From IMG/VR virus record IMGVR_UViG_3300034161_000018, positions 32,001 to 96,000 of that record: a DNA stretch of 64,000 nucleotides. The stretch is one strand, 5' to 3'. Below, in pieces: positions 3,719 through 32,662 of the stretch (positions within the stretch are counted from its first letter, which is position 1; every line of letters starts with the position of its first letter). Origin of the DNA: a virus. Its lineage: Duplodnaviria > Caudoviricetes. The notes beneath the pieces are model-generated. The model was not told where the DNA came from, ran no database searches, and was given only the letters and a program-made list of their open reading frames with translations. Made by a program: the position numbers and the translations under genes.

Positions 3719-3720
3719 TG

Positions 3721-4044
3721 TTAGTCTTCCTTGTACAAGAATTCGTGATCGAAATTCAGTTCTTCCGGATTCGGATTGAAACTCGGATTCGGTGGGTCGG
3801 CCTCGCCAAGCAGTTTTAGGAGGTCTTTGTTTATGATGTTTACCGTGGCCCCTTGCATCCACTTTTTGTTTTCTTCCATGCGCTCGCTGGTAATGCTGAA
3901 AGAACCGTGGTTGTCTTGGTGCGAAATGCTCAGGCCGTGTTTGTCGTAAAGCTCAAACAATTCCTTTTTGAAATCTTCGGCCTTCCGTTCGTTTGGCGAG
4001 AGCGGCGGCGGGTAATCATCGGAACCACTAAACAGTCTCACCAC
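3721..4044 (-). CDS. hypothetical protein
   Basis: 107-aa ORF (GTG start), tight packing. Confidence 0.7.
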   Translation of the reverse strand: MVRLFSGSDDYPPPLSPNERKAEDFKKELFELYDKHGLSISHQDNHGSFSITSERMEENKKWMQGATVNIINKDLLKLLGEADPPNPSFNPNPEELNFDHEFLYKED

Positions 4045-4291
4045 GTTGTTCGTCCTCCTGCATTTCCCGCACAGTGATTTTCATAACCTGTTCTTCGGAA
4101 AACTGGCCGTCGTTAATAAGTTCCTCCAGCGCATCACCGGCGCTACGCAAAACATCGGCCAGATAGTTTGGGCGGAAAACTCCAGCCGCATCGCGCAGCG
4201 GATACGAACGGGTCAGTTCGATTGTCTCAAACGGATTGCCCAAGTCGATTTCCGCTTCGACGATAAACATCTTTTGTTCGGTGCTTGCCAT
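4028..4291 (-). CDS. hypothetical protein
   Basis: 87-aa ORF directly after the stop at 4292. Confidence 0.75.
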   Translation of the reverse strand: MASTEQKMFIVEAEIDLGNPFETIELTRSYPLRDAAGVFRPNYLADVLRSAGDALEELINDGQFSEEQVMKITVREMQEDEQRGETV

Positions 4292-9949: not shown

Positions 9950-10969
9950 TTATGCCGCTTTTGCGCGGGTTGCTTTGACCAGACATACAGCGGCTTTGGT
10001 TGGCTTCAACACTTTAGAGAAGTGCGAACCTTTCGACTTGGCGGCTTCCAGTTCCTTGATTTCGGAAAGGGTCACGCCGCTGTATTCGTAAACCGCGCCG
10101 GACTTGAAAGTCACGGTCAAAGTTTTGCGCGCTTTCTCGTAGCTGGCGCCTGCAATGTTTGTGCTGGTGCCGATTTCCAGAACGCGCACGCCTTCTTTCA
10201 TTGCGGTAGTGGCTTTCGGTGCGGTCTTGGCTACGGCAGTTTCTTTGCCGAGTTTGACGCGCAAGTTGCCACGGTTGTTGCGTTCAATGTCGGTCAGAAC
10301 AATGCGCGAACCTTTGTCAGTCACGGCAACGCGGGCGTCGAGTTTGTGGTCGCGAACAATGCGGATCACTTTCTCTTTCGCACGACCGATCAAAACTTCT
10401 TGATCGCGAATGTCGGTGCCTTTCAGTTCAGCGGCTTCCGAAGTGTTTGCAACTTTTGCCGCTGGAGTTTTGGTGGCCGCTGGTTTGGCTTCCACTTCTG
10501 GCTTAACGCGCAGGTTGCCACGGTTGTTCCGTTCAATGTTTGCAACTGGAACACGAACACCACTTTCCAGCACTGCAACGCGGTTGCCTTCCGGCGCCTT
10601 CACAACGTTTGCAATTTTTTCGCGAGTGCGGCCAACCAGAATAACCGAACCTTTCAGTTCAACAGTGGTGAATTCGGTCTGCGCAGTTTTCGCCGCTGGT
10701 TTGGTTTCGGCTTTCGGTGCAACCGGTTTAACCGCTGGCTTGGCGCCCGGTTTGGTTTCGCCTTTCAGGGCAGTGACGACTTCGGTTTGTTTGGCTTTGA
10801 AATCTTTCAGCCAGTTTTTCAGTTCGCGGTAAGTAACGCCGTTGCCCAAATCAGCCGACAGTGCAAACATTTGTTCGCCGGTTTCTTTCTTGTGGGCGTT
10901 CGCCAGTTTCACCAGTTGGGAACCAGCAGCGAACAGGATGGCAGCGGCGGTGTGAGTGTTAGTGGTCAT
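9950..10969 (-). CDS. KTSC-domain nucleic-acid-binding protein with two tandem beta-rich repeats and Lys/Ala-rich linkers
   Basis: C-terminal STNIAGASY..KTLTVTFKSGAVYEYSGVT....L..AKSKGSHF matches the KTSC pattern; two IERNNRGNLRVK repeats; AAGGGG RBS. Confidence 0.8.
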   Translation of the reverse strand: MTTNTHTAAAILFAAGSQLVKLANAHKKETGEQMFALSADLGNGVTYRELKNWLKDFKAKQTEVVTALKGETKPGAKPAVKPVAPKAETKPAAKTAQTEFTTVELKGSVILVGRTREKIANVVKAPEGNRVAVLESGVRVPVANIERNNRGNLRVKPEVEAKPAATKTPAAKVANTSEAAELKGTDIRDQEVLIGRAKEKVIRIVRDHKLDARVAVTDKGSRIVLTDIERNNRGNLRVKLGKETAVAKTAPKATTAMKEGVRVLEIGTSTNIAGASYEKARKTLTVTFKSGAVYEYSGVTLSEIKELEAAKSKGSHFSKVLKPTKAAVCLVKATRAKAA

Positions 10970-10993: not shown

Positions 10994-11023
10994 AGTATGA
11001 AATGTTTGATTGAGTGAGTTCAA
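10994..11023 (-). promoter_or_regulatory. possible sigma70 promoter for the KTSC gene
   Basis: Minus strand TTGAAC-N18-CATACT, about 25 nt before ATG. Confidence 0.35.
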
Positions 11024-11028
11024 TCCAA

Positions 11029-11051
11029 CTAGCGACTCCCTGAATCGCTAG
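11029..11051 (-). terminator. stem-loop after the 11063 gene
   Basis: CTAGCGA-ttcagggag-TCGCTAG; weak U-tail. Confidence 0.55.
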
Positions 11052-11062
11052 GAAAATTTATC

Positions 11063-11404
11063 TCATTCGTTCCACGGGAAACCTTTCGGCGTCACCATGA
11101 TTTCGCGTTCGTCTTTAAACAAACGTTTTTCGACCGGCACTTCATGGTAGTCCACAAGCGCCTCCATTTCTTCTGGCGTACCGGCGAAACGGAAAAGCGG
11201 AATCCACTCGTCTGTTTCGTATTGGTACGTCCATTTACTGTTCGCCCATTCCGGCGACACGTCCACCAACCGAACATCCATATGGGATGTTTGCGTCGGG
11301 TAGAGTTCACCGTCTACCGGAATCCGCAGAAACGGCGAGTCGCGCAGTTCCAACGTTTCGATTTCGGCCAGTGTGTAAGTTTGGCCGCGTACTGGATACG
11401 TCAT
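11063..11404 (-). CDS. hypothetical protein, first gene after promoter cassette 1
   Basis: Start MTYPVRG with AAGGGG RBS. Confidence 0.8.
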   Translation of the reverse strand: MTYPVRGQTYTLAEIETLELRDSPFLRIPVDGELYPTQTSHMDVRLVDVSPEWANSKWTYQYETDEWIPLFRFAGTPEEMEALVDYHEVPVEKRLFKDEREIMVTPKGFPWNE

Positions 11405-11421
11405 GTTGTCCCCTTTCCGTT

Positions 11422-11538
11422 GAACTTCCACTAAGTCGTAAGTGTCAGTGTATCAGGCACGCTGCGCCGAACACGTAGTCAATATAGCACGAAACCCCGC
11501 AATGGGCAGGGTTAAGGCTTACGGTTTAAAGGAGGTTC
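11422..11538 (-). promoter_or_regulatory. promoter cassette copy 1: inverted 21-bp sites flanking an extended -10
   Basis: GAACTTCCACTAAGTCGTAAG (+, 11422-11442); GAACCTCCTTTAAACCGTAAG (-, 11518-11538); TGC-TATATT on minus at 11481-11489. Confidence 0.75.
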
Positions 11539-11554
11539 CGGAACCGCCCCGGCA

Positions 11555-11989
11555 TTAGCGGGCCAGCGTTCCCATTACCCTGTGGATTGTGTCGGCGCGG
11601 TTCAGCAGATTTTGCGCGAAGTCGTACAGGCTCATTTCGCCAATGTCCGAGGAACTGAGTTCTGCAAACATTTCCGTAATGGCCGAACGGAACAGGCGCG
11701 CAATCTTGAGCACGTCGTCGTGCCGGTCGCTGGAAATCTTTTCGTCGCAAACGCTGACAGAAATGCGCAGCGCCATCGGCAAAGAAACGCGAACCAGATT
11801 CGCAAGGAAGTCTTTGTCTATGTCAAACATATCGAGAGGCAATCCGGCCTCCAAATAGTTTACGGCTGGATAAGTCGGGTCGGGGCGCAGCGTGCGGAAA
11901 TTTTGTTCCAGCGCATACGCAAACTCTTTCGGACTCAATTCAGCGAAACGATCCATCAACATCGAAGGGTATTGTTTTGGAGTGTTCAT
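11555..11989 (-). CDS. hypothetical protein
   Basis: Start reset to MNTPKQ (TAATG overlap). Confidence 0.75.
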   Translation of the reverse strand: MNTPKQYPSMLMDRFAELSPKEFAYALEQNFRTLRPDPTYPAVNYLEAGLPLDMFDIDKDFLANLVRVSLPMALRISVSVCDEKISSDRHDDVLKIARLFRSAITEMFAELSSSDIGEMSLYDFAQNLLNRADTIHRVMGTLAR

Positions 11990-12180
11990 TAGTTTTGTTC
12001 CTGATTGTGTTGTTGAACCCGCGAATCGCAGGCGTCTGATTTGGTGCAGTGTCCGCCAGTCCACGAACACGCATAGCCGTTGTGACTGGTTCCGTTCCGG
12101 GCCGCGTCGATCTTCATTCGCAGCGGGCAATTTGTTTGTGAGTGGCCCGGATGGTTTTCATGATTTCCACGGTGCGGCAT
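11989..12180 (-). CDS. small Cys/His-rich protein
   Basis: TAATG-coupled start MPHRG; four Cys (NCP..ACS..HCT..ACD). Confidence 0.5.
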   Translation of the reverse strand: MPHRGNHENHPGHSQTNCPLRMKIDAARNGTSHNGYACSWTGGHCTKSDACDSRVQQHNQEQN

Positions 12181-12419
12181 TAGTGACAAACTCCTGTGAG
12201 GAACGCGACCTGTTCAATTAGTTTGTAGCAAGACAGCGCCAGCAGCGCGTGGAAAATCCACGGCAGCCGAATGTATTCGTAACGGAAATTCGCAGCAACG
12301 TACAGCGGGTTTTCGTTGTGCTTCTTTTCCTCGCGGGCATTCACCTTGCGCAGATACCACTTGATCCAGATGAAACCAATAATCCCCGAAACCGCCAGTG
12401 CTAAAATAATCCAGTTCAT
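12180..12419 (-). CDS. small membrane protein (2 TM)
   Basis: MNWIILALAVSGIIGFIWIKWY and LPWIFHALLALSC hydrophobic segments. Confidence 0.75.
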   Translation of the reverse strand: MNWIILALAVSGIIGFIWIKWYLRKVNAREEKKHNENPLYVAANFRYEYIRLPWIFHALLALSCYKLIEQVAFLTGVCH

Positions 12420-12431
12420 TGCCGTAGTCCT

Positions 12432-12887
12432 TTATCGTCTTGCGACTTTCTTTGTCGTCGCCTTCTTGAGCGTCGAATGCGGGAAGCCGTGATTTTCGTC
12501 CGCGTACAGAATGCGGTTTAGTTCCAGCGAATTGTCGGCGAATGAAATAATGTCGAAGGCCAGTTGCCCAGCGCTATCGAAACAAACCGCCATGCCGCCA
12601 GACGGATCAAACATTCGTGCAAACATTACGCCGCCTTCTTTCGGTTTCAGCACAACGAAACGCGGAGCCGACCTAGAGTTCACAACCGGTTCCACCGTTG
12701 TGTCTGCATCCTCGAAATAAATTGCATCGTATTCCGTGGCGGCGATTCCCATCATGCCTGCAAGTTCGTCCGCTGAAAGTTCGCGGTCACGGAATGGAAT
12801 TCGCACGCGGGTCAACTGTGAAGCGTCGAGCACAAACGTTGCGATTCCGCCGTGATGGAACCAGAAACCAAACAGACCAGTTTTCAC
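12432..12887 (-). CDS. hypothetical protein
   Basis: GTG start with GGGAGG RBS. Confidence 0.8.
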   Translation of the reverse strand: MKTGLFGFWFHHGGIATFVLDASQLTRVRIPFRDRELSADELAGMMGIAATEYDAIYFEDADTTVEPVVNSRSAPRFVVLKPKEGGVMFARMFDPSGGMAVCFDSAGQLAFDIISFADNSLELNRILYADENHGFPHSTLKKATTKKVARR

Positions 12888-12918
12888 GATAACCTCCCGA
12901 GCCGAAGCTCGTTACAAA

Positions 12919-13398
12919 CTATTCGCTTTCTTCTTCGTGGCGCCCAAGGTGAGTGCCAGAAACTTCGCGATGAACTTCAAACATCGGTTCGGACGTTTTC
13001 AGCAGGCGTCTCGCTTCGCCTTGCGTGTGGCAGAAATCGTAAATGTCCACGCGCTTTTCCGATCCTTCTTCGGTCAACTGATTGTCGTAACCGATTCGGG
13101 CGTCGAAGAATTGCCAACTGCGTTCGGTGATTTCCACCACGCTTTTCGTGATTGCAATCGGAGGTGTCAGGCAATGGTCAAATACGATTTCGACCGACAC
13201 GTTTTGTTTGAGGAAAGTTTTGCTGGTGCGTTCCTCAATGCAAACATCCAGCAACGGTTTCAGCGCCGCCACTTCTTTAGTGGTCAGGTGATAGTTTAGC
13301 GCGGCTTCGTGGTTCTGGTCGATGATGAAAAACGGCTTGCGACCTTCTGCGTAAATCCAGAAGCCGAGGATTGGTTTCAGTTTTGGAGTGCGTGCCAT
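12919..13398 (-). CDS. hypothetical protein
   Basis: 159-aa ORF, GGGAG RBS. Confidence 0.8.
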   Translation of the reverse strand: MARTPKLKPILGFWIYAEGRKPFFIIDQNHEAALNYHLTTKEVAALKPLLDVCIEERTSKTFLKQNVSVEIVFDHCLTPPIAITKSVVEITERSWQFFDARIGYDNQLTEEGSEKRVDIYDFCHTQGEARRLLKTSEPMFEVHREVSGTHLGRHEEESE

Positions 13399-13413
13399 GT
13401 TTGTGTCTCCCGA

Positions 13414-13638
13414 TTATGTGCGACGAATGCCGCCGTTGTTTTGTTTCGGTTGAGTGATGAGCTTGTCCAGCCTGTAGAAACAGTATGCGACCACGCAAAC
13501 AATTGCGTAGGCCAGCGCTTTCATTTGCCAGTGCGCAGCCATTAATTCCATGCCGCCTTTCTGGTACATCAGCCAGCCGGTGACGGCAGGCAAAAGGAAC
13601 ATCGGTAAAACGTAAAACAGAAACGTGCTAACTTTCAT
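13414..13638 (-). CDS. small membrane protein (2 TM)
   Basis: FLFYVLPMFLLPAVTGWLM and ALAYAIVCVVAYCFY. Confidence 0.75.
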   Translation of the reverse strand: MKVSTFLFYVLPMFLLPAVTGWLMYQKGGMELMAAHWQMKALAYAIVCVVAYCFYRLDKLITQPKQNNGGIRRT

Positions 13639-14108
13639 ACGCGTTGCATACCCTTCTTTTTCTTCCGCTTCGGCGCGCTGCCAGTGGCAACCCGCGCAAT
13701 GGTTTCGTGTTCTTTGGCGTGGCGTTTCGCCCGGTCAGATTTCTTTTCGTGTTTGACCTTAGAATCCCCGCCAAGTAAATCGTTGCCCTGATCCATCGTC
13801 ATTGAAACGTCAAACACAACGTCAACATTTGGCCGTTGCGGTTTCGGCATTCGTGCGCTGGCTTCCGGCGACTTGTGCGAAATTGACGCTACAGGTTTCG
13901 GGCGTTTCTTCACAACCACAACCGGGTCGGGCCGTGGTACGTCAATGCGTCCGGCCAAACGCAAAAGCAATCGAGTGGCGACCAGTGAGAGCGTGGCGAC
14001 TTCCTCCAAAGTGTTTGCGTCAACAGTGGAAGCGGTTTTGCCGTTGAGCAAGGCCAACGCTCCCGCTAACTGCCGTGTGCCTTTCTCAAACAAAACTGCG
14101 TTTTTCAT
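13635..14108 (-). CDS. hypothetical basic protein
   Basis: GAGG RBS; Lys-rich C-terminus. Confidence 0.75.
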   Translation of the reverse strand: MKNAVLFEKGTRQLAGALALLNGKTASTVDANTLEEVATLSLVATRLLLRLAGRIDVPRPDPVVVVKKRPKPVASISHKSPEASARMPKPQRPNVDVVFDVSMTMDQGNDLLGGDSKVKHEKKSDRAKRHAKEHETIARVATGSAPKRKKKKGMQRV

Positions 14109-14115
14109 ATTCACC

Positions 14116-14307
14116 TCAAATGTTTACGTCGATCCCGCAAGTGTCGAGTTCGCCCACCATTTCAATTTGGCGGTACGCATTCAGCTTGCGCATCGTTTCA
14201 CAACTCGGAACATCCGGCACCAGCACAACGTCCATCGAATCTCTTGCAGCGTCTTTCCGAACATCCGAACTTTTGTAATCGGCTACCACGTTACCATTGC
14301 GTTCCAT
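14116..14307 (-). CDS. hypothetical protein
   Basis: 63-aa ORF, GGAG RBS. Confidence 0.7.
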   Translation of the reverse strand: MERNGNVVADYKSSDVRKDAARDSMDVVLVPDVPSCETMRKLNAYRQIEMVGELDTCGIDVNI

Positions 14308-14319
14308 GCTGACTCCAAA

Positions 14320-14778
14320 CTATTTTCGTTTTTTCTCCTTGGGTTTCGGCATGACAGGCCGCATCATAACGAACCGTAGGACGAATTGGCTTTGGTTGGT
14401 AAAGCGACTTCGTGCAGCGTGTTTTTCGATCACGCGCAGAAGTGTATCGGCAAACTCAAACACTGCCCGCTGTGCAGGCGACGGCAAAACTTCGGTCGGC
14501 GACTTCTCCTTAAACAATAATCTGAATGCCTTGGCGCGTTGTTGTAAACGCACGGCCCTCATTTCGTAAAGCGCGTCGGCCAGTTTCAGAATCTCCCGGC
14601 AATCGAAGTTTACGAAAGTGAGTCTGTCCGGGTCAGCGTCTGCAAACTTTTTCAGTTCGGCAACGCCGTTGTATCCCGAGTGCTTTTTCAGAACAGCGGG
14701 GAATGCTTTGAGCACTCCCGCCGTGGTGGTGCAGGCAAAGCTTCCGCTGGCGATCACGCTAACAATGTTTGTGTTCAT
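14320..14778 (-). CDS. hypothetical protein
   Basis: Start reset to MNTNIVS with GGGGA RBS. Confidence 0.75.
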   Translation of the reverse strand: MNTNIVSVIASGSFACTTTAGVLKAFPAVLKKHSGYNGVAELKKFADADPDRLTFVNFDCREILKLADALYEMRAVRLQQRAKAFRLLFKEKSPTEVLPSPAQRAVFEFADTLLRVIEKHAARSRFTNQSQFVLRFVMMRPVMPKPKEKKRK

Positions 14779-14797
14779 AAATCCCCAGCGGAGCATT

Positions 14798-15508
14798 TTA
14801 GTAGGTCAGTGAAACGCGGCGTTTGCCGAGCGGTCGGTTGAAATGGTCGGCCAGTGTTGTGTCGGCGTAATAACCTTTCGAGTTCAAGTAGCAGCGGTAC
14901 GCGACGGCTTCCGCTTCGTCTTGGTCTTCTTCACCAAAATAAAGGTCGTCGTATTTCACCGCGCAAATGTCGGTGTGGTCGCATTCGGTAATCAGAATCT
15001 GGTGAAATTCTTCGCCATACAGAAAACCTTTGATATGGTCTTCGTTGTCGGCGTCGTCGCCGGTGTATTCCGAAAGCAGGCGATTGGTGTCAACTGCCGT
15101 GCGGCTGTTGCTGAATTCCACAAACGACATAAACTTGCCGTCGTCTTTGTGAACAATTTCCATGAAGTCGAAACCCGTAGGAACGCGGATAACGTGGACG
15201 CTGTTTTCCAAAAGATTGCGACGATTGTGCGGCAAGTTGTAGTAGAGTTCAGCGACCGGCGACAGGCAAAGCGCGGCACGCAAAACAGTTTGGTAATCGC
15301 CCTGCATGATTGCAACCGGCGTCGTGATATGCGCGTTTTGCTGGTTGCGGATTTCAACGAGGAACACGCCGTAACGATTGTCCTCGGTGTCGAAAGTTTT
15401 TGCAATGTCTTCCAGTTGGCGTTTGTTGCGCGGCAGTGCGAAAGCGCTCAACAAAACATTGCCGTAAGATTGGTTGCTTACGTTTGTAGCCAGTTCCAAA
15501 TAACGCAT
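14798..15508 (-). CDS. hypothetical protein
   Basis: 236-aa ORF, AGGGGA RBS. Confidence 0.8.
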   Translation of the reverse strand: MRYLELATNVSNQSYGNVLLSAFALPRNKRQLEDIAKTFDTEDNRYGVFLVEIRNQQNAHITTPVAIMQGDYQTVLRAALCLSPVAELYYNLPHNRRNLLENSVHVIRVPTGFDFMEIVHKDDGKFMSFVEFSNSRTAVDTNRLLSEYTGDDADNEDHIKGFLYGEEFHQILITECDHTDICAVKYDDLYFGEEDQDEAEAVAYRCYLNSKGYYADTTLADHFNRPLGKRRVSLTY

Positions 15509-15539
15509 GGTGATTTTCCCCTGAAATGTTTGCAGTGAA

Positions 15540-16049
15540 TTAGTTTGCAGCTTCGGTCAGGCCGTCGTCTTCGTCTTTCAACGACGGCAGTTGTTCGTGC
15601 TTTTCTTCGCCGTAGGCCAGCAGTGCCATTGCTTCCAGAACCGGCATTGAAACGTTGTCGTTCTTGTCGGTGAAGTATGGCGTCACGCTCGCGAAGTCGT
15701 CGAGGTACGAAATGATTGCGAACGGTGCCCAGCGGGAAACGCGACCATCACTGCAAACAACGCGGTGACGAAATCCCGAATCATTCCAACCGGCGCCAAC
15801 TTCTTTGGTTTCGATCTTGTAGGTTTTCGGCAGCGCACTTTCCAAAACAGTTTCGCTGATTTCGATGTTGCTCGCGAACCCGATAACTTCATCGACGGTC
15901 AGGTCGGAAAGTTTCTTGCCGGTGAAATGGCTCAGGCGTACAACGTTGCCGTCCGCAATGCGGAACCCGTAACCGCGACCGATACGCACAAATGAAATCG
16001 GCAGGTCTTTCAGGCGGGCATTAACTTCTTCAAACTTTTGCTCAGACAT
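15540..16049 (-). CDS. hypothetical protein
   Basis: 169-aa ORF, AGGGA RBS. Confidence 0.8.
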   Translation of the reverse strand: MSEQKFEEVNARLKDLPISFVRIGRGYGFRIADGNVVRLSHFTGKKLSDLTVDEVIGFASNIEISETVLESALPKTYKIETKEVGAGWNDSGFRHRVVCSDGRVSRWAPFAIISYLDDFASVTPYFTDKNDNVSMPVLEAMALLAYGEEKHEQLPSLKDEDDGLTEAAN

Positions 16050-16104
16050 TTCGATTGTCCCTGAATAGATCGGAGCGCCGAAAGGGCGCCCCGTGTTGCG
16101 GTGA

Positions 16105-17589
16105 TTAGTTGCGCGCTGCGGTCACTGCCGCCGAAACGGCTTCGGTGCAGATTGCAGATTTCTTGGCGAGGTCAATCAGGCGCTCGCGAATCTTTTTGTC
16201 GGTGAAACCTTTGTGGGCAATATCAACCGCCACACAAATGCGTTCCAGTTCTTCGCGGGTCGTGTGCGACAAACTATCGCGCAGCGAAATGATTTCGTTG
16301 GATTCTTTCGGTTCGGCGAAGTCGTCATCTTCTTCGTCGTCTTCGTCTTCGTCCTCGAAATCTTCTTCGTCTTCTTCTTCGTCGTCCACCAGATCAAAAG
16401 TTTCGTTGAACCGTTCCTGTGCCGCGTGCAAATCAGCCTCGGAACTGGCAATTAAAACAGTGACCATCACGGTTTCGTTGTCGTGAACAGTTTTCGCGTC
16501 CAGAACAACAACCGAAGGGTCAGCGGTGAACGCTTTGTGCATTGCGAGCTTCGCGACTTCGTGGATGCTCTCAACTTTTTCGTTGCTCAGCAGAATGCGC
16601 GCCGGGGTTTCTTCTTCTTCTTCGTCGTCGATTTCTTCCGCTTCAAATTCGTCATCGTCCGAATCATCTTCGTCTTCGTCGTCTTCCATTTCGACTGTTG
16701 GGTCGAAGCCGAAGTCTTCCCACTCGCAAACATTTGCAACGAACGGTTCAAACTCCAGCAAAATATCTGAACCTTCGGTCAGGCGGCTTTCGTCCGCCAA
16801 ATCCGTAATCGCATCTTTCAGTTCACTGAGAATCTGGAAAGGCGATTCAAAGTAAGCTGGTTTGAAACGCTCGCTCGGAATGGCCGGAATGTTTTCGACC
16901 GATTCTTTGAAGTTGTTGCGTTCTTCTTTGCGGCGGTAATCGGCGAAGTCGATCAACTGATAACCGAGTTCGACGATTGAGTCGCGGTCGAAACCGAGTT
17001 TGTTTGGCAGAGTTGCCGGAATGAACGTGGCGCGTTCTTCTTCGGTCGCATCCTGTTTCGGGGTTTTGACTTCCAACCCTTCTACCAGCGACAGCAGCGA
17101 CGAATAGGAAACCAGACGTTTCAAATTGTTTGCAGCAACCGCCAGCGATTCGGTCGGCCAGATACCGATTACTTCACCGCCGAGAGTAACGCGGGTCAAT
17201 TGCAAATCGCCTTCGTAATCTTCCGGCGAGAATTCGTTGCCGTCCACGTCGTCGCGAACCACGATCAAAACATCACCGTCTTCGTCCGGCTCCAGTTCGT
17301 CGCGGCATTCTTCCAGTTCTTCCAACAAACCGGAAACCAGTTCTTCGCCTTCAACCAGCGTCAAACATTTTGCTGGCGAGTAACCGACGAAAAGATTCAC
17401 TTCCAAATCTTTGTTCAACGTCGCCAGCAGGTAATCGTTTTCGCGACCTTCTTTATCGGCGGCGTCCGGATTGATTTCAGGGTAACTACCCACAACTGCG
17501 GCGAACCCATAAAGTGCTTGCGGTTGCACTTCGCCGTTTTCGTCCATTGCGCGAATGATTACACGTTGGCCGTTTTGGTATTGTTGCAT
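16105..17589 (-). CDS. highly acidic protein with a C-terminal small helical (SAP/HeH/Rho-N-like) motif; first gene after promoter cassette 2
   Basis: Two poly-D/E tracts; C-terminal LSHTTREELERICVAVDIAHKGFTDKKIRERLI; AGGAG RBS. Confidence 0.75.
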   Translation of the reverse strand: MQQYQNGQRVIIRAMDENGEVQPQALYGFAAVVGSYPEINPDAADKEGRENDYLLATLNKDLEVNLFVGYSPAKCLTLVEGEELVSGLLEELEECRDELEPDEDGDVLIVVRDDVDGNEFSPEDYEGDLQLTRVTLGGEVIGIWPTESLAVAANNLKRLVSYSSLLSLVEGLEVKTPKQDATEEERATFIPATLPNKLGFDRDSIVELGYQLIDFADYRRKEERNNFKESVENIPAIPSERFKPAYFESPFQILSELKDAITDLADESRLTEGSDILLEFEPFVANVCEWEDFGFDPTVEMEDDEDEDDSDDDEFEAEEIDDEEEEETPARILLSNEKVESIHEVAKLAMHKAFTADPSVVVLDAKTVHDNETVMVTVLIASSEADLHAAQERFNETFDLVDDEEEDEEDFEDEDEDDEEDDDFAEPKESNEIISLRDSLSHTTREELERICVAVDIAHKGFTDKKIRERLIDLAKKSAICTEAVSAAVTAARN

Positions 17590-17641
17590 GGGTGAATCTC
17601 CTGAATTGTTTGTGTGTTGCCTGTGCGGGCAAGGTGCCCTT

Positions 17642-17756
17642 AAACTTCCGCTAACTCGTAAGTGTCAACATGCGGGGTGCGGATTTCCCAGCTAAGACAT
17701 TGTATCATACTGGCCCCGGATTGGAATAGCCTACGCTTACGCGCTAGGGTACGTTC
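17642..17756 (-). promoter_or_regulatory. promoter cassette copy 2: inverted 21-bp sites flanking an extended -10
   Basis: AAACTTCCGCTAACTCGTAAG (+, 17642-17662); GAACGTACCCTAGCGCGTAAG (-, 17736-17756); minus strand ATTCCA-N17-TACAAT with TGn. Confidence 0.8.
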
Positions 17757-17787
17757 CCCCGGCCCGTTTTCCGGAATCCAGAAACGC

Positions 17788-17812
17788 GAAAGGGGAACCG
17801 CAATGGCTCCCC
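17788..17812 (-). terminator. terminator hairpin upstream of cassette 2
   Basis: GGGGA...TCCCC stem followed by TTTC on minus, just after the 17819 stop. Confidence 0.6.
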
Positions 17813-17818
17813 AATCGT

Positions 17819-18436
17819 TTACATATCGTCGTCGTCGAACTCGTCCGAATCGTCGTCTTCATCTTGAACGCGCCGCGCCTTTTTCTGAGGCTGGCCGTTA
17901 ACTGGAACGCAACCGTTTGGAATGGCGCGCAGAATCCACGGTTTGGTTTCGAGCAACGTCCGGCGTTGTGTTTGCAGTCGGTCGCGTGCGTCTTCCAAAT
18001 CGTCCAGCGGGTCATTCACCGCCGAACCCAAAACATTGCGCAGCGATTCGATTGCCGCGTTTACGTGCGCAATGTCGGAGTCGATTTTGTCGAGTTGTGC
18101 TTGTTCCTGAATCGCCAACACTTCCAAAACGTTTTTCGCGAACTGAACTTTCTCGCGCTGGTTTACAGGCAGACGCCAGCCGGGAGGCGCCGCTTGGATT
18201 TTCGTAGTGCGTCCGGGCGATACCTGTTCCACTTTCGGGAACTGATTGGTTTCCACCAGATAGTTGCGAATCAGGCGTTGCACGGCGCGGCCATTCATCG
18301 TGGTGAAAAACAATTGCGCGCCGGTAGGTTCAACCAGTTCGATCACGCTTTGCGCTTGCTGTGCAGAAAGTTCGGGCGCAATTTGGCGCAGCCGTTCTTC
18401 CAACATTTTTACGATTTCAACCCGCTTAACAGTCAT
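17819..18436 (-). CDS. hypothetical coiled-coil protein with an acidic tail
   Basis: 205-aa ORF, ATGA overlap. Confidence 0.8.
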   Translation of the reverse strand: MTVKRVEIVKMLEERLRQIAPELSAQQAQSVIELVEPTGAQLFFTTMNGRAVQRLIRNYLVETNQFPKVEQVSPGRTTKIQAAPPGWRLPVNQREKVQFAKNVLEVLAIQEQAQLDKIDSDIAHVNAAIESLRNVLGSAVNDPLDDLEDARDRLQTQRRTLLETKPWILRAIPNGCVPVNGQPQKKARRVQDEDDDSDEFDDDDM

Positions 18437-19104
18437 GCCATTTCCCTTTCGGTTTTGGTTAGGAACGCGTCAATCTTTTTGCGGATACGCGACGTGCCGA
18501 TCAAGGCTAGGCCGTTCTCCACTCTCTGAATATCTTTTACAGTTTCCAGAATCTCTGCCGCCATTTCCTCACGGCGGATATGCAGCGCCTTGCGACGGAG
18601 CAACAACCGGTTGGCTTCTATTTTGAAAGTGTCGCGGCGCCGTTTCCAAATTGGAGCCATCGCAGGTTTGCGTTCCAAACGTTTTGCTTTGTGTTGTTCG
18701 GCAGCTTGGCGACCGGCTACAACATCGGCCATCAGTTCCGGGTCGTCGTCTTCTAAAGCGATTTGTTCAAGTTCTGCATCCCACGTCGATTCGTAAACAA
18801 ATGGCGTGTCGCCGGGGCTTTCGGAAATGTAGTTCTGCAATGCGTCCAACACTTTCGGCTCAATGTTTGCACTCGGCACGTCATCGAGAATTGGCAGAAT
18901 GGTACGGGCCAGAAACTCGTTGCGTTCATTGATTTGGCGATGCAGGTTCGCCATGTTTGCGGAAACCGAAGGATCGAGTGCAACCGCCACGTTCCACTGA
19001 ATCAGATTTTGCAACGTGGTCATTGGATCAGCCGGATCGAAGTCACAGTGGCTGATAATGCAAAGTTGTTCAACTGCGGTTTGGAAAGTGAATGATTCAC
19101 TCAT
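18433..19104 (-). CDS. hypothetical coiled-coil protein
   Basis: Start reset to MSESFTF, overlapping the upstream stop. Confidence 0.75.
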   Translation of the reverse strand: MSESFTFQTAVEQLCIISHCDFDPADPMTTLQNLIQWNVAVALDPSVSANMANLHRQINERNEFLARTILPILDDVPSANIEPKVLDALQNYISESPGDTPFVYESTWDAELEQIALEDDDPELMADVVAGRQAAEQHKAKRLERKPAMAPIWKRRRDTFKIEANRLLLRRKALHIRREEMAAEILETVKDIQRVENGLALIGTSRIRKKIDAFLTKTEREMA

Positions 19105-19444
19105 TTTCGCTAATGTCCTTTTTCGATTTCTTTGGAACGACAGGGCCGTCAACCAGATAACTGAGTGGGGCTTCGGTTAGAACACGCTCAAGGTTTCGGG
19201 CCAGCCGGGTTTCGCGGGCGGTTTCCAAACGGGCGCGCATTCTGATTTCGGAAAGCTGGGCTTCGCGCAAGTCGAAATATTTCTTGGCGAAGTCGTCGCG
19301 TTCAACTTCCGTTTGTTTGCAGCGTTGCTTCCACATTGCGGCGCGCATAAAGTCACCGATCCACAGAAGCAAAAACAGAATGGCCAGCAGTATCGCTACT
19401 GCCAGCCAGAAGTTTGAAATGAAGTCGTCGAAGTTTAGCGTCAT
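19097..19444 (-). CDS. membrane-anchored coiled-coil protein
   Basis: FWLAVAILLAILFLLLWIG TM followed by a charged helix. Confidence 0.75.
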   Translation of the reverse strand: MTLNFDDFISNFWLAVAILLAILFLLLWIGDFMRAAMWKQRCKQTEVERDDFAKKYFDLREAQLSEIRMRARLETARETRLARNLERVLTEAPLSYLVDGPVVPKKSKKDISENE

Positions 19445-20049
19445 TCTGTTTTCCTCAGATCATGGTAAACACATTTGGAATATTTCTTGGCGAAAGCCAG
19501 AATCTCGCGGCGCTGTTTGAAAGGCAGCGTGTTGAAAAACTCGGGGTTGTTGCAGCAAACAACGTGTTCCGGTTTTACTGTTTGGGCCAGCGCAACAACG
19601 TGTTCACCTTCGTCACCATTCCCGCCATTCAAATAACCTTGCGCAGCGAGGCGGTGCGTTTCGTTTGCCCACAATGCCGCTTCCTTAAACGCGGCCTCCA
19701 CGTCGAGGATGCGGCCAAACTTTTCAATTTTCACCACAATCCAATCGGTCGGGCGTGCGCTGTTTGTTGACGCGTACTGCAAATCGAATCCAGCAGCGTG
19801 CGTAGGGCAATCGGTTGTGCAAACAATTTTGCCGGGAACGAGAGAGTCCAGTTGGTCGCGGTGCATTTTCCGGTAAACAAATTCCGGCATGGGCGACGAT
19901 TGTTTGCCGATCAATTCAGCGGCAGCCAACGCCCCGGACACGCAATAAACCCGGTGGCGTTTGTGGCGATACCGACTGTTGATCCATTCGTCACCGTTTA
20001 CGTGATAGGCCAAATGTTTGATGATTTGGTCGGCGGTGCGTTTGTTCAT
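19441..20049 (-). CDS. hypothetical protein
   Basis: 202-aa ORF, 4-bp overlaps. Confidence 0.8.
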   Translation of the reverse strand: MNKRTADQIIKHLAYHVNGDEWINSRYRHKRHRVYCVSGALAAAELIGKQSSPMPEFVYRKMHRDQLDSLVPGKIVCTTDCPTHAAGFDLQYASTNSARPTDWIVVKIEKFGRILDVEAAFKEAALWANETHRLAAQGYLNGGNGDEGEHVVALAQTVKPEHVVCCNNPEFFNTLPFKQRREILAFAKKYSKCVYHDLRKTE

Positions 20050-20324
20050 CGACGCGTTCTCTTTTCGTCCAAACGTTTGTGCAGAATGCGGATTGCTTCA
20101 CTGCCTTCTTGAACCGTTTTAACCAAGGTCATGATGTGCGCGTGCTGTTCCATATTGTTCAGCAGCAAATCAGCGTTGCCCTTTTCCAAAACCTTGATGT
20201 GCTGGTTCCGAATTTCAGACATTTTCTTGTGGTGGTTTTTCCGAAGCCACAAAGTCAGCACCAGACAGCCAACGGTGAGACATGCCATAACGACTTGAGC
20301 CAATGCCGAGTATTTTCCAAACAT
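20046..20324 (-). CDS. membrane-anchored coiled-coil protein
   Basis: ALAQVVMACLTVGCLVLTLWL TM; GGAGG RBS. Confidence 0.75.
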   Translation of the reverse strand: MFGKYSALAQVVMACLTVGCLVLTLWLRKNHHKKMSEIRNQHIKVLEKGNADLLLNNMEQHAHIMTLVKTVQEGSEAIRILHKRLDEKRTRR

Positions 20325-20325
20325 T

Positions 20326-20769
20326 TCAAACCTCCTTGATTGCGCGTCGGGCGTGGTCAGTGAACTGTTTGTTCAACCATTCCAGATTACAGTCGCGCAT
20401 GAAATAAACGATGTTGCCGTTTTCGGTAACGCCTTGCTCAACATCTGCCGGGTCGATGTGTTCAGCCATTCCATCGCGGAACGCTGTGATTTCGTCGGCG
20501 CGGCGATCCAACACAAACTGGTATTCTTCCAAACTTTTTTGGTCGCGACTTTGGTTGAACATCACAACCATCGTCAGGTCGTTGCTGGTTTCGTTTTCGT
20601 CACGGAGGCGCCAAACAAAGCGGCGCATCTTGCCGGGGGCCATGCTGGATTCCGCCATTTCGACAACGCCTTTAAAGCAGACGCCGTGATACTGCGGATT
20701 GTGGCCGAGCACTTTCAGAAAATCTTCTTTGGACATTGAAGCATCGACCAGCGCAGCGCAGAAAATCAT
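20326..20769 (-). CDS. hypothetical protein
   Basis: 147-aa ORF. Confidence 0.8.
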   Translation of the reverse strand: MIFCAALVDASMSKEDFLKVLGHNPQYHGVCFKGVVEMAESSMAPGKMRRFVWRLRDENETSNDLTMVVMFNQSRDQKSLEEYQFVLDRRADEITAFRDGMAEHIDPADVEQGVTENGNIVYFMRDCNLEWLNKQFTDHARRAIKEV

Positions 20770-20993
20770 TTTGGTTCGTCCTTCGGGAAAACCCGTTCTT
20801 TGGTCACAGCGTTGTAGACGTGAAAGCCGACTGGATTAATCTCGCCCATTTCAGCAGCGCACGTTTTCGCATTTTGTTCGTCTTGAAATTCCGCGCCAAT
20901 CTTTTCGCGGTTGATGTAACCGGTGCGATTCAGGGTCGGGCCGAAATACGGTTTGCCGGTGTAGGCACGGCTGGCCTTGATAACGTGAAACAT
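20766..20993 (-). CDS. hypothetical protein
   Basis: 75-aa ORF, tight packing. Confidence 0.75.
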   Translation of the reverse strand: MFHVIKASRAYTGKPYFGPTLNRTGYINREKIGAEFQDEQNAKTCAAEMGEINPVGFHVYNAVTKERVFPKDEPK

Positions 20994-20994
20994 T

Positions 20995-21279
20995 TTATTC
21001 GTCCTTTAATTGGCTGTTCGTAAAACCGAGGATTGGGATTTTCATGTACGTGCTGCAAACTAAATAGGTGTCCCAACCAATGCGCGCATCCGGGCCGTAG
21101 GCTTCGACACGAACTGTTTGCAGCGTCAGTTCCCGGTCGAGTTCTTCTTGCGTGAACGGGAAACCAGATTCCAGCGCCAGCTTTTTCGCGTGGGCGATCA
21201 CTGCGCTTTTCGTTGGTTCCAGTTCGACAACCGTTTCCATTGAAGCGGCAAGCGAGCCGCGATGTTCGCGAAATTTCAT
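20995..21279 (-). CDS. hypothetical protein
   Basis: 94-aa ORF, GAGGA RBS. Confidence 0.75.
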   Translation of the reverse strand: MKFREHRGSLAASMETVVELEPTKSAVIAHAKKLALESGFPFTQEELDRELTLQTVRVEAYGPDARIGWDTYLVCSTYMKIPILGFTNSQLKDE

Positions 21280-21288
21280 TTTGAATCC

Positions 21289-21597
21289 TCAGTGCAGAAC
21301 AGGAATGACGGATTCGATTTCGCCACCAAACAAACCGAAAGTGCTGGAGCGCAATTCATCGTCCGGCCACGGCTTCATCCGGTTTTCATCTTTCCAGATT
21401 GTGTCGGCGTCCATTTGCACGACGATGGTGTCAGGGCAGCGGCACTGATTATCGCGAATTCCCAAAACGGTGCCAGTGCCGGTCGTGCCGTGGCGGGTCT
21501 TCACTTTCACGCGGTCGCCCTTCTTGATGATTAAGCGGCCCGAATCAGACTCGAAAGAATCCAGCAGACCAGAAGTGTTTACAGTTACGTCATTCAT
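21289..21597 (-). CDS. hypothetical protein, possible SH3/KOW-like barrel
   Basis: IKKGDRVKVKTRHGTTGTGTVLGI resembles KOW/SH3-type starts. Confidence 0.7.
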   Translation of the reverse strand: MNDVTVNTSGLLDSFESDSGRLIIKKGDRVKVKTRHGTTGTGTVLGIRDNQCRCPDTIVVQMDADTIWKDENRMKPWPDDELRSSTFGLFGGEIESVIPVLH

Positions 21598-22199
21598 TTT
21601 ACAGCCTCCGAAATGTTGAGAGAGTTGACTGCGGCAATCATTTTGTCGAGTCGGGCTTTGAAACTCTTAAACGATTTGAATTCGATTCCCCACGCTTCAC
21701 ACTCACCCAACACGTCCCACTGGCTTGTTGTGAGTTTGGTTTGGTTGTGGGCCTTCATCCCCTCAGTGGTCGCGTTAATTGAGTAGGCCAAATAATCTTC
21801 GTCTTTGCATTTCGAGTTTCCCATCGGGACTTCGATGTTGACTTCGATAACCGCGCCGGATTTACCAATTGGCAGCGAAAACCTTTGTTCGCCGAAAAAC
21901 TCGGAATGGTTCCAAACAGTTGGAACTTCAAACTGCGGGTCTTTGTGTGCGTAATGTTTGCGGTCGAGTTTGAATCCGGCGTCAACCAAAGCGGCTGTCG
22001 ATTTGGTGAAAGCAGGCAGCAACTTTTCCAACGGGGCGCGGCGTTGTGCGATAAAAGTTTCCGGCGCTATCTTGTGGGTCTGTCCATAGCTCAGAACTAA
22101 AGCACGTTCGCGCAGCGGGCGCAGTTGGGCTTCCAGTCGGGCGATTTTCTTTTTCAGTTCTGCGGCTTCGTCGGCGTGTGCTTTAGTGAAACGTGCCAT
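21594..22199 (-). CDS. hypothetical protein
   Basis: 201-aa ORF, AAGGA RBS. Confidence 0.8.
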   Translation of the reverse strand: MARFTKAHADEAAELKKKIARLEAQLRPLRERALVLSYGQTHKIAPETFIAQRRAPLEKLLPAFTKSTAALVDAGFKLDRKHYAHKDPQFEVPTVWNHSEFFGEQRFSLPIGKSGAVIEVNIEVPMGNSKCKDEDYLAYSINATTEGMKAHNQTKLTTSQWDVLGECEAWGIEFKSFKSFKARLDKMIAAVNSLNISEAVK

Positions 22200-22226
22200 G
22201 ATTCGATTCCTTGAAATGTTTGCAGG

Positions 22227-22508
22227 TTAAACGGTGAAGTGGAATTCTTCGACCGGCATTGCGACGGCGCGGCTTTCTGCGCGGTTCCAGTCGCACGCGT
22301 AGAAACGTTCGCGAACCAGCATGTCGTTTTTGTCGCGGCATTCCAGAATCACAACACACGACGATTCATACGTGCAAAGCTTGTTGGCCTGTTCGACCAT
22401 AAACTTTTCGGTCGTGTTGAAATGTTGGAACAGGCGAGTACGCATTTCGTCGCGGATTTCAAAACCCACAACCTTGTTGCCTTTCGGTGAAATTTTAATC
22501 TTGGCCAT
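22227..22508 (-). CDS. hypothetical protein
   Basis: Start reset to MAKIKIS with AAGGGGA RBS. Confidence 0.75.
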   Translation of the reverse strand: MAKIKISPKGNKVVGFEIRDEMRTRLFQHFNTTEKFMVEQANKLCTYESSCVVILECRDKNDMLVRERFYACDWNRAESRAVAMPVEEFHFTV

Positions 22509-22518
22509 GTCTATCCCC

Positions 22519-22719
22519 TTACCATTCTGCGTATGCTTGTTTGCCCAATGCAACAACTTGAGCGACCGAAAGTTTGTCGAGCGGTTCATCGGTCAGGTCT
22601 TCTAACCGGGCTTTCGTATCGCGGAAGTGGAAAGCGTAGCTGCCACCGGCGCCCAACCGAAACTCAATTCCGGTTCCAATCAATTCGCGATTCACCGCGT
22701 CAGTGTTTACGTGTGCCAC
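22519..22719 (-). CDS. hypothetical protein
   Basis: GTG start with AGAGGA RBS. Confidence 0.65.
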   Translation of the reverse strand: MAHVNTDAVNRELIGTGIEFRLGAGGSYAFHFRDTKARLEDLTDEPLDKLSVAQVVALGKQAYAEW

Positions 22720-22747
22720 GATTCTGTCCTCTGAAAATGTTTGCAGT

Positions 22748-22894
22748 TTAGATCGAGCTACGGAAACGGCGCTGTGCATTACGAACCTGTTGTTCGCGGG
22801 CCTGTTCGGCTTCGATCAGTGCGCTATTCCACTGCCAAGTTTTGCGGGCAGTGCGGGAGGTTTTGTTTTCGGCGGTCTGAGTGTTTGTACGCAT
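22748..22894 (-). CDS. small hypothetical protein (48 aa, MRTNTQTAENKTSRTARKTWQW...), first gene after cassette 3, missed by the ORF track
   Basis: Translated by hand; GGGGA RBS. Confidence 0.65.
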   Translation of the reverse strand: MRTNTQTAENKTSRTARKTWQWNSALIEAEQAREQQVRNAQRRFRSSI

Positions 22895-22943
22895 GGCAAT
22901 GTGTCCCCAATTATTATGTTTGCAGGAAGGTGGCGGTGTGCCT

Positions 22944-23059
22944 GAACTTCAGTTAAGTCGTAAGTGTTAACTTGCGGGCTGGTGTTTCCCGAGTATTGAC
23001 ATTATCCCATAGCGGGCCGGGATTGGAAATCAGTTACCCTTACGGCCTAGTGTACGTTC
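22944..23059 (-). promoter_or_regulatory. promoter cassette copy 3: inverted 21-bp sites flanking an extended -10
   Basis: GAACTTCAGTTAAGTCGTAAG (+, 22944-22964); GAACGTACACTAGGCCGTAAG (-, 23039-23059); minus strand TTTCCA-N17-GATAAT with TGn. Confidence 0.8.
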
Positions 23060-23087
23060 CCGTCTGGTTTCCGGGGGCCAGAAACGA

Positions 23088-23116
23088 CGAAAGGGCAGCA
23101 CAGGGCCACCCTTTCG
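23088..23116 (-). terminator. terminator hairpin upstream of cassette 3
   Basis: CGAAAGGG...CCCTTTCG stem immediately after the 23119 stop. Confidence 0.65.
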
Positions 23117-23118
23117 GT

Positions 23119-23589
23119 TTACACAACAGCCGCCAGCGGAGTTACGCGCAGTCGGTCGTCCAAACGTTTGAACAGTTGCAGGATGTAGCTGACTTGGAAA
23201 TAAAGTTCTTCCGAGTCTTCGTGAATGCCAAACGTTTGTTGCAGCGCTGCCAGAATACGCCGAGCCAATCCGGTCGAACCGATGCTCAGTTTTTCCAAAA
23301 TCAGCAAACGCGTAAACAAATCAAAAACCACGGATGGTTCTTTGCCGGAGCGCACAGCCAGTTGGGCCAAACCATTCAGCGTCGGTTCGATTGCCAACAA
23401 CCCGATTGGGTTTTTGATTCGGAAACCGATTGGTGCCGAAACGTTTGGATCACCGCTGTGAATCGCTTCGACGTAAAAATGGTCACGCACATGCTCGCCA
23501 ATATCTTCGGCAGTCAGCGGAATGTCAGAGCCGAAAACCGTGACGCCTTTGTAGTGCCAGTCTTCGACGTGTTCTGGAAGTCGTTGCAT
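23119..23589 (-). CDS. hypothetical protein downstream of the endolysin
   Basis: 156-aa ORF. Confidence 0.75.
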   Translation of the reverse strand: MQRLPEHVEDWHYKGVTVFGSDIPLTAEDIGEHVRDHFYVEAIHSGDPNVSAPIGFRIKNPIGLLAIEPTLNGLAQLAVRSGKEPSVVFDLFTRLLILEKLSIGSTGLARRILAALQQTFGIHEDSEELYFQVSYILQLFKRLDDRLRVTPLAAVV

Positions 23590-30134: not shown

Positions 30135-30171
30135 GGTTGCCTCGGTTGAGTGTGGTGTTCGTGATTAAAGT

Positions 30172-30357
30172 TTACAGTTTTCCTTCGCGCAGCTTCTTGG
30201 CTACGCTCGGACGGATGCGGGGTTTGCGGCTCAGGAATTGCGGGGCTTTGCGGCAGTCGATTCGGGCCTGTTGCTGTTCAAAGCTCCCCGGCGAAAAGGT
30301 GGACTTGCCGCCGTGGATTGTGTCGGTGACGATTTCGATTCCGTTGTCTTTGCTCAT
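30172..30357 (-). CDS. small basic hypothetical protein
   Basis: 61-aa ORF. Confidence 0.6.
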   Translation of the reverse strand: MSKDNGIEIVTDTIHGGKSTFSPGSFEQQQARIDCRKAPQFLSRKPRIRPSVAKKLREGKL

Positions 30358-32622: not shown

Positions 32623-32662
32623 TTAAGTTTTCTTCCTTTGCTATCAGAGGTAGGTTTACAGT

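Follow-up and report, generated by a model that had tools for sequence, protein, structure and literature searches.

Inverted pairs of a conserved sequence flank predicted host-type early promoters in a jumbo phage of the Lu11/PaBG group

What are the two inverted sequences that bracket a promoter in three separate intergenic regions of the genome of an uncultured phage, and what could read them? The regions lie in a 64,000-nucleotide stretch (the window; positions 32,001 to 96,000 of IMG/VR record IMGVR_UViG_3300034161_000018) that forms part of a 274,896-bp virus record with direct terminal repeats. A first-pass annotation described them as a three-copy cassette in which an extended -10 promoter is caged between inverted 21-bp sites, and proposed that a phage-encoded oligomeric regulator binds both sites. 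The finding is real, genome-wide and conserved across a group of phages. With about even confidence, we read the elements as predicted binding sites on double-stranded DNA for one phage-encoded, sequence-specific protein that would control the host-type early promoters of this phage as a set.

The three cassettes were located correctly by the first-pass annotation. All six 21-mers fit the pattern RAACNTNNNYTARNNCGTAAG with no mismatch, and none was expected from 100 shuffles. The centre-to-centre distances between paired sites (96, 94 and 95 bp in cassettes 1, 2 and 3) equal those first reported, and a minus-strand extended -10 lies between the sites in every case. A 27-nt weight matrix was then built from the sites and the whole genome scanned with a cut of 19 bits. 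Exactly 18 sites reached this cut, forming nine inverted pairs, and the next-best score in the genome was 14 bits. The hits are confined to these nine cassettes rather than scattered at background frequency, and comparable sites occur nowhere else in the genome. What had been taken for a three-copy cassette is consequently a family of nine: five cassettes on the arm with leftward genes (genome positions 13.6, 28.6, 43.4, 49.6 and 54.9 kb) and four on the arm with rightward genes (161.0, 165.7, 168.5 and 184.9 kb). The conserved site is also longer than the annotated 21-mers. It spans about 27 bp, with the consensus RAAC.T.C..TA...CGTAAG.GTWA, and its two copies in a pair are not equivalent. 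The gene-proximal one hardly varies and lies in the predicted transcript (on the transcribed minus strand of cassette 1 this leader box reads ACACTTACGACTTAGTGGAAGTTC, from about +29 to +55), and the upstream copy retains the consensus positions only; the gene-proximal site is the better conserved one in nine of nine cassettes. On both genome arms, all nine are oriented with the transcription of their genes. Read along the gene strand, each cassette runs from the upstream site through a poor -35, a TGn-extended -10, a leader hairpin and the inverted second site to a ribosome-binding site and start codon.

The same element recurs in two cultivable relatives. DNA-level matches to known phages are limited to a conserved ATPase segment (Lu11, Dickeya and Erwinia jumbo phages, and Motura, by remote blastn), and megablast against phage records returned no close relative. 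Of the 334 predicted proteins, 145-149 have homologues in Lu11 and 143 in PaBG, and the phage was assigned to the Lu11/PaBG group, which is the 'Lupandier' group of PMC7412058. Lu11 carries ten gene-proximal boxes of the form ACACTCACG..TTAG.GGAAGTTT. Most lie 33-35 nt after a sigma70-like -10, two are farther away, and one box-associated sigma70-like promoter is annotated in the Lu11 record. For most of these boxes the start codon follows after 2-5 nt, so that GGAAG becomes the Shine-Dalgarno sequence. An inverted upstream copy accompanies a single Lu11 box (134256/134336, 80 bp apart), and by gene order this pair corresponds to the cassette at genome position 184936. At least seven cassettes occur in PaBG, each an extended -10 bracketed by inverted 25-bp sites 90-92 bp apart (Table 1). 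Its gene-proximal box, TAGTGGTTACGGACTTAGTTGAGGT, aligns by eye with that of the present phage once a 1-nt indel is admitted. The box pattern gave nothing above control in JA29, Yoloswag and Motura.

Both arms carry a variant that is the phage's own: CGTAAG.GT here, CGTGA in Lu11 and TAACCACTA in PaBG. Since the host of Lu11 and that of PaBG are both Pseudomonas, a reader encoded by the phage is favoured over one supplied by the host. From these comparisons, the gene-proximal box is the old and primary element; its upstream partner, which PaBG also has, is old too, but it can be dispensed with, as most Lu11 boxes show. Some links between cassettes and genes are old as well, because a Lu11 homologue of a KTSC-domain protein (3711-4175) directly follows a Lu11 box (4446) and weak homologues of the 562-aa first gene after the 168.5-kb cassette lie just after a box in Lu11 and PaBG. 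Closer to the present phage, the gene-proximal site of cassette 1 is identical in a relative from IMG/VR and in metagenome contigs. A scan of metagenomes for the box pattern returned mostly chance matches, the real ones being confined to Lu11-like contigs (L074, L096, L106 and L111) and the known relative (L089). Several Lu11 boxes (JQ768459; for example L014, L015 and L016) are preceded not by an inverted copy but, upstream of the -35, by one to three CACGCGTATAGAGG-like copies; these include the palindrome ACGCGT, look like the box core read in direct orientation, and may be a different or rearranged upstream site.

The promoters inside the cassettes are the best sigma70-like promoters among 104 upstream regions that were scored, occupying ranks one to seven and eight of the first ten. 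Neither a T7-type nor a multisubunit phage RNA polymerase (RNAP) was detected in the genome (no match to PF00940, PF00562 or PF00623), which makes early transcription by the host RNAP, as first proposed, plausible. The genome does encode one phage sigma factor (180688-181701; phrog_17569, E = 1e-125). Region 4 was not detectable in it, and the genome held no match to sigma region 4 or extracytoplasmic function (ECF)-type domains (PF08281, PF04545). A second motif, AAACTGTAAAC, is probably the promoter motif of this sigma factor. Its exact form occurs about 25 times in the genome. Among the copies listed with at most one mismatch, nearly every one points the same way as the genes, and most of those in intergenic regions lie 35-90 nt upstream of a gene. 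The CTGTAAA(TA) core of the motif is likewise enriched upstream of genes in Lu11, JA29 and PaBG. On the simplest reading, the cassettes are host-polymerase early promoters and the CTGTAAA elements are promoters of the phage sigma factor. A recent review fits this two-class picture for jumbo phages without their own polymerase, and notes that most jumbo phages are of this kind and that the timing of their host-polymerase transcription is largely obscure (PMC13282480). The cassettes in the window are each followed by a block of minus-strand genes or open reading frames, as the first-pass annotation had noted, and the genes behind the cassettes have no Pfam or PHROG function, one KTSC-domain protein excepted.

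How might the bracketing pair act on such promoters? In the mechanism that we propose, the cassettes would be the host-RNAP (sigma70-type) early promoters of the phage, and the two inverted 21-27-bp elements would be bound as double-stranded DNA by one sequence-specific, phage-encoded protein. The strong site, centred at about +40, would lie just past the downstream edge of promoter-bound polymerase, and the weaker auxiliary site, centred at about -54, would lie where the upstream contacts of the polymerase end, with both sites facing the promoter in mirror orientation. The most likely role would be joint switching of the promoter class, probably its shut-off once early proteins have accumulated, by a protein that blocks or traps polymerase and may or may not bridge the two sites. 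Incidentally, the cassettes also act as homology anchors where related phages exchange gene blocks.

The geometry of the cassettes was measured on 14 of them, nine in this phage and five in the IMG/VR relative, counting the -10 as positions -12 to -7. Between the end of the upstream 21-mer and the -10 there are 31-32 bp in 12 of the 14, including all three cassettes of the window. The exceptions are the 184.9-kb cassette and its orthologue, in which a hairpin is inserted and the distance is 64-65 bp. The gene-proximal 21-mer starts 35-39 bp after the -10 (36-38 bp in the window). The sites consequently lie at about -44 to -64 and about +29 to +49, roughly symmetric about the -10 and close to the -45 to -65 and +30 to +50 first given. 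Centre-to-centre distances are 93-97 bp, or 128 and 130 bp in the 184.9-kb cassette and its orthologue. This total spacing is no more constant than the component distances to the -10. The nine helical turns that had been proposed between the sites, with looping as their purpose, therefore arise as the sum of two fixed distances to the promoter. The helical phase is also loose within and between phages (93-97 and 128-130 bp here, 80 bp in Lu11, 90-92 bp in PaBG), and nine of the ten Lu11 boxes have no inverted partner. The downstream site thus works without a loop, and cooperation of two sites is not essential to the element. Looping as such is not favoured by the spacing data.

A pair of inverted sequences could also be the two arms of a helix, and the pattern of variation speaks to this directly. 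Cognate arms of one cassette are no more alike than arms of different cassettes in this phage (17.67 versus 17.92 matches of 27; permutation p = 0.77), and they differ from each other at about 8 of 27 positions. Summed over this phage and its relative, cognate arms show 119 differences, of which 63 are transversions, 26 wobble-compatible changes and 30 reverse transitions. Positions 1, 9, 10, 14 and 25, where the gene-proximal site varies, are variable in its upstream counterpart too. When orthologous cassettes are compared, the upstream site has changed at many non-consensus positions but has retained AAC.T.C..TA...CGTAAG. This pattern suggests two independent matches to one recognition sequence rather than a helix, and so favours protein-binding sites on DNA. 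The lack of compensatory or wobble-biased change, the shared variable positions, the phage-own variants and the fact that no inverted form was seen are together better explained by a pair of protein-binding sites than by an RNA stem, an invertible promoter switch or a mobile element.

The main rival, to which we give roughly one chance in four, is that the box acts in messenger RNA. A standard 5′ leader, made of a hairpin and a single-stranded box that ends in the Shine-Dalgarno sequence, would be read by the ribosome, a nuclease or an RNA-binding protein of phage or host. As for the upstream copy, it would act as an 'anti-box', pairing with the box in read-through RNA and leading to its masking or to RNase III-like cleavage, so that only promoter-initiated transcripts express the first gene. 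Several observations suit this scheme and weigh against protein-binding sites on DNA. The gene-proximal site sits in the predicted 5′ leader, starting 32-36 nt after the -10 in 22 of 24 cassettes from three phages, and in many cassettes it provides the Shine-Dalgarno sequence. Its 3′ end (GGAAG or GAGG) plays this part for the first gene in Lu11, in PaBG and in four cassettes from this phage and its relative, where the start codon is 2-8 nt beyond the box. Part of the conservation of the gene-proximal site could therefore be RNA-level. Most of the 24 leaders also hold a small hairpin, starting a few nucleotides after the predicted start site and preceding the box, whose stems differ in sequence. 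Against dinucleotide shuffles, the leader folds have a mean z of -1.54 (-2.2 in Lu11, -0.76 in this phage), which supports the promoters being used and the box lying in the messenger. Predicted read-through RNA folds arm on arm in the minimum-energy structure of 11 of 14 cassettes. Cognate arms in PaBG are slightly more alike than non-cognate ones (17.7 versus 16.7 of 25; exact p = 0.012), an excess that could reflect pairing or gene conversion. Lu11 mostly retains the box without its upstream partner, which counts on the same side. Two further points weigh only against protein-binding sites on DNA: the helical phase is loose, and no DNA-binding domain was found by Pfam, PHROGs and Atlas in about 40 early or conserved proteins among the 334 predicted.

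Other observations run counter to a role in RNA. Compensatory change between the arms is absent in this phage, the differences are mostly transversions without wobble bias, and the mismatch spectrum in PaBG is biased opposite to wobble tolerance (7 versus 16). Complementarity between the arms reaches no more than about 65-75%. The box is invariant even though 13-75 nt separate it from the start codon in the majority of this phage's cassettes. Terminators precede several of the upstream sites, so little read-through is expected, and Rfam covariance models run over positions 11000-23500 gave no relevant match at E ≤ 1. Two narrower RNA-level roles were considered and set aside. The box shares a 9-mer complement with 16S rRNA near position 1492; this was put down to chance, since the Lu11 and PaBG boxes have no matching stretch. 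A leader peptide ending at the conserved TAG/TAA of the box was rejected by eye, as its frame differs between Lu11 boxes. Two leaders, that of cassette 1 (window 11455-11475) and one at genome position ~168490, carry GGCGCAGCGTG and GGCGTAGCGTG, and the others do not. Both are one deletion away from the ops element, GGCGGTAGCGTG, which recruits RfaH.

The proteins scanned for a regulator were those of the first genes after all cassettes and 26 shared with Lu11 and PaBG; Atlas comparisons of two candidates gave no useful lead. The regulator of the first-pass annotation thus fits the variation pattern and the phage-own variants of the sites, but no candidate emerged from this set. A more detailed version of the proposal is put forward tentatively, with clearly lower confidence. 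One phage protein would recognize an asymmetric 25-27-bp sequence that is mirrored around each host-type early promoter, near -54 and near +40. By clamping or looping the host polymerase bound there, it would turn the entire early regulon off, or on, in one step. The first early gene would use this sequence as its translation start region too, and the whole would constitute a conserved, previously undescribed control system of the RNAP-less jumbo phages of the Lu11/PaBG group.

Could the cassettes be kept alike by recombination instead? The closest described system consists of the PeSLs of the T4-type phages RB49 and phi1, which are repeated units of early promoter, stem-loop and Shine-Dalgarno ahead of unknown genes and which mediate modular shuffling (PMC2839356; Arbiol et al. 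2010). The first-pass annotation knew of no description of the system; repeated early-promoter cassettes of this kind had been described, and the bracketing pair of sequence-conserved sites is absent from the PeSL description. Like a PeSL, the present cassette is an intergenic repeat that combines a strong sigma70-like promoter for early genes with a Shine-Dalgarno sequence and a function in termination. It likewise stands ahead of gene blocks of unknown function, and homology between related phages breaks at it. In a PeSL, however, the inverted repeat forms a single compact stem-loop, often GC-rich, within or next to the promoter; its structure is what is conserved, and it serves as the terminator. 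Here, two sequence-conserved 21-27-bp sites about 95 bp apart bracket promoter and leader and show no compensatory change, and termination falls to a distinct hairpin that lies further upstream.

On another reading, the cassettes would chiefly be PeSL-like recombination modules, repeats of terminator, promoter and leader kept alike by the shuffling of early blocks, with arms that have no regulatory reader. We consider this improbable, at something near one chance in eight. RB49 and phi1 PeSLs are similar in general make-up and role. Homology to the IMG/VR relative also breaks off at a cassette border in two of four orthologues: for the 28.6-kb cassette this is its upstream border, and at 54.9 kb it is the downstream border of the box. 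Relatives in metagenomes, moreover, lack or replace genes inside the early blocks, leaving gene-sized gaps. Yet the spacers and hairpin stems have diverged, and the sites, their orientation and their distances are kept in lineages that have no other DNA similarity, which indicates selection on the sites and not homogenization. An inverted pair is also unnecessary for recombination.

A further possibility is that the sites are themselves promoters, read by another form of polymerase. The reader would be either an ECF-like or phage sigma factor (GAAC, 17 nt, CGTAA or TGTTAA) or a T7-type enzyme; the upstream copy would fire toward the genes and the downstream copy antisense. GAACTT resembles the -35 of RpoE/AlgU-type promoters, a (C/T)GT(A/T)A element follows 17 nt further on, and the box shares TACGACT with the T7 promoter. 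A weak second sigma-like gene has been noted in PaBG (PMC7412058). We nonetheless rate this explanation as very unlikely. Neither a T7-type RNAP nor a sigma region 4 or ECF-type domain was detected in the genome, and the sole phage sigma factor has its own abundant motif, AAACTGTAAAC, which is kept as CTGTAAA in Lu11, JA29 and PaBG. The would-be spacer, TA...CGTAAG, is conserved as strongly as the would-be hexamers, and the best-conserved copy would face away from the genes.

A promoter flanked by inverted repeats also recalls an invertible promoter (an inverton) or a miniature transposable element with terminal inverted repeats, which is the least probable of the explanations weighed here. 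A weak, tyrosine-recombinase-like Phage_integrase match of 19.2 bits, below threshold, at genome position 208722-209015 (L176; in a 574-aa frame) would speak for it. However, the 9 + 5 + 7 cassettes of three lineages all point at their genes, the arms are far from identical, and no serine recombinase or resolvase was found in the genome. Contigs of relatives at about 90% identity from four metagenome runs cross cassettes without strand-switch joints, with the reservation that contigs may hide rare variants. Target-site duplications were not seen at the flanks of the two cassettes inspected, the interiors have diverged, and cassette positions are orthologous between phages, all of which is unlike a mobile element. 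As a separate observation, the 574-aa frame is conserved in Lu11 and PaBG.

Bracketing sites bound by one protein have precedents in bacterial and phage regulation. The lac operators O1 and O3 lie 92 bp apart, and the gal operators OE and OI lie at -60.5 and +53.5. As with these auxiliary operators, a strong and a weaker copy of one recognition sequence flank the promoter at 90-115 bp, and one of them is transcribed. Two matches to one consensus around a promoter, a trait of looping repressors, are found in nine pairs here and in at least seven in PaBG. The lac and gal operators, though, are dyad-symmetric and bound by known dimers or tetramers, whereas the present site is asymmetric (at most a weak pseudo-dyad), its pair is inverted, its phase is loose, and Lu11 mostly has no second site.

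The C1 operators of P1 and the 'stoperators' bound by gp71 of mycobacteriophage L5 are genome-wide sets of asymmetric sites that belong to temperate phages and maintain lysogeny, and a protein bound at such a site in a leader would block elongation. The sites described here resemble them in being many, asymmetric, fixed in orientation to transcription and in part located in transcribed leaders. They differ in occurring at one class of host-type promoter only, at fixed distances to the -10, and the sole integrase-family match of this phage is weak and below threshold. The nut sites of lambda and the put sites of HK022 are leader elements, and the box is comparable to them in that it is conserved, lies within the first 30-50 nt of early transcripts and stands beside a hairpin. 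In contrast to nut and put, the hairpin loop is not conserved here, the order is hairpin and then box, an inverted DNA copy stands upstream of the promoter, and there is no Rfam match. A literature search, from whose scope the Lu11 genome announcement fell out, found no description of the paired sites, and no PaBG transcriptome paper was found.

The cassettes would define the early promoter set of one group of jumbo phages that have no RNAP, and the 27-bp site offers a precise bait for the regulator. PaBG (host P. aeruginosa PAO1) shares the architecture and Lu11 (host P. putida) shares the gene-proximal box; both can be cultivated, and the idea is thus directly testable. The cassettes also mark exchange points of early gene blocks between relatives, and as compact, strong units of promoter and leader they could serve as genetic parts.

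Table 1. Features of the three window cassettes and of related elements. Positions refer to the window unless the genome or PaBG is named.
Feature	Position	Strand	Remarks
Cassette 1 upstream site	11512..11538 (21-mer 11518-11538 plus 6-nt extension)	minus	about -38 to -64; 30.6 bits; ends 31 bp from the -10
Cassette 1 extended -10, TGC TATATT (TGCTATATT)	11481..11489	minus	sequence, promoter scoring
Cassette 1 gene-proximal site	11422..11448	plus	GAAC...CGTAAGTGT on the plus strand; pattern match, 40.4 bits
First gene after cassette 1	11063..11404	minus	113 aa, no known family
KTSC-domain protein, second gene after cassette 1	9950-10969	minus	
Cassette 2 upstream site	17730..17756	minus	pattern match and weight matrix
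Cassette 2 extended -10, TGA TACAAT (TGATACAAT)	17699..17707	minus	-35 TTCCAA; promoter scoring
Cassette 2 gene-proximal site (leader box)	17642..17668	plus	37.5 bits
Terminator-like hairpin with T-rich tail, closing the upstream operon	17780..17812	minus	about 25 nt before the cassette 2 upstream site
First gene after cassette 2	16105..17589	minus	494 aa, no known family
Cassette 3 upstream site	23033..23059	minus	pattern match and weight matrix
Cassette 3 promoter, TTTCCA, 17 nt, TGG GATAAT	23001..23029	minus	consensus scan
Cassette 3 extended -10 (TGGGATAAT)	23001-23009	minus	sequence
Cassette 3 gene-proximal site (leader box)	22944..22970	plus	35.9 bits
Terminator-like hairpin of the upstream operon, ahead of cassette 3	23088..23116	minus	
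Example copies of AAACTGTAAAC	30171-30181 (genome 62171), 32655-32665 (genome 64655)	minus	
PaBG cassettes	4390/4481, 12722/12814, 20560/20652, 98380/98472, 102083/102174, 108784/108874, 255073/255165 (PaBG)		

Some smaller features of the surroundings deserve mention. By alignment, the sequence of the hairpin ahead of cassette 2 recurs ahead of the cassette at genome position 160987. In the early block after cassette 3, segments 22508-22720, 20996-21286 and 21599-22227, each about the size of one small gene, are skipped or replaced in related-phage contigs from the four metagenome runs. Just upstream of the sigma gene, a 77-aa protein (genome 180445-180678; L219) carries a Tad2-like Thoeris anti-defence domain (PF11195, E = 6e-19). 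JA29 (MH460461) has an intergenic motif of its own, CTCTGCAAA followed after 4 nt by TGTCCAAAA, in about eight of the ten TGTCCAAAA copies listed (for example at 220527, 224501, 232022 and 233728), and this motif bears no sequence relation to the cassettes. Finally, the repeats GGCCCAACTGGCCCGCAAGG at genome 225-238 kb are collagen-like Gly-X-Y repeats inside large plus-strand genes that, by appearance, resemble tail fibres.

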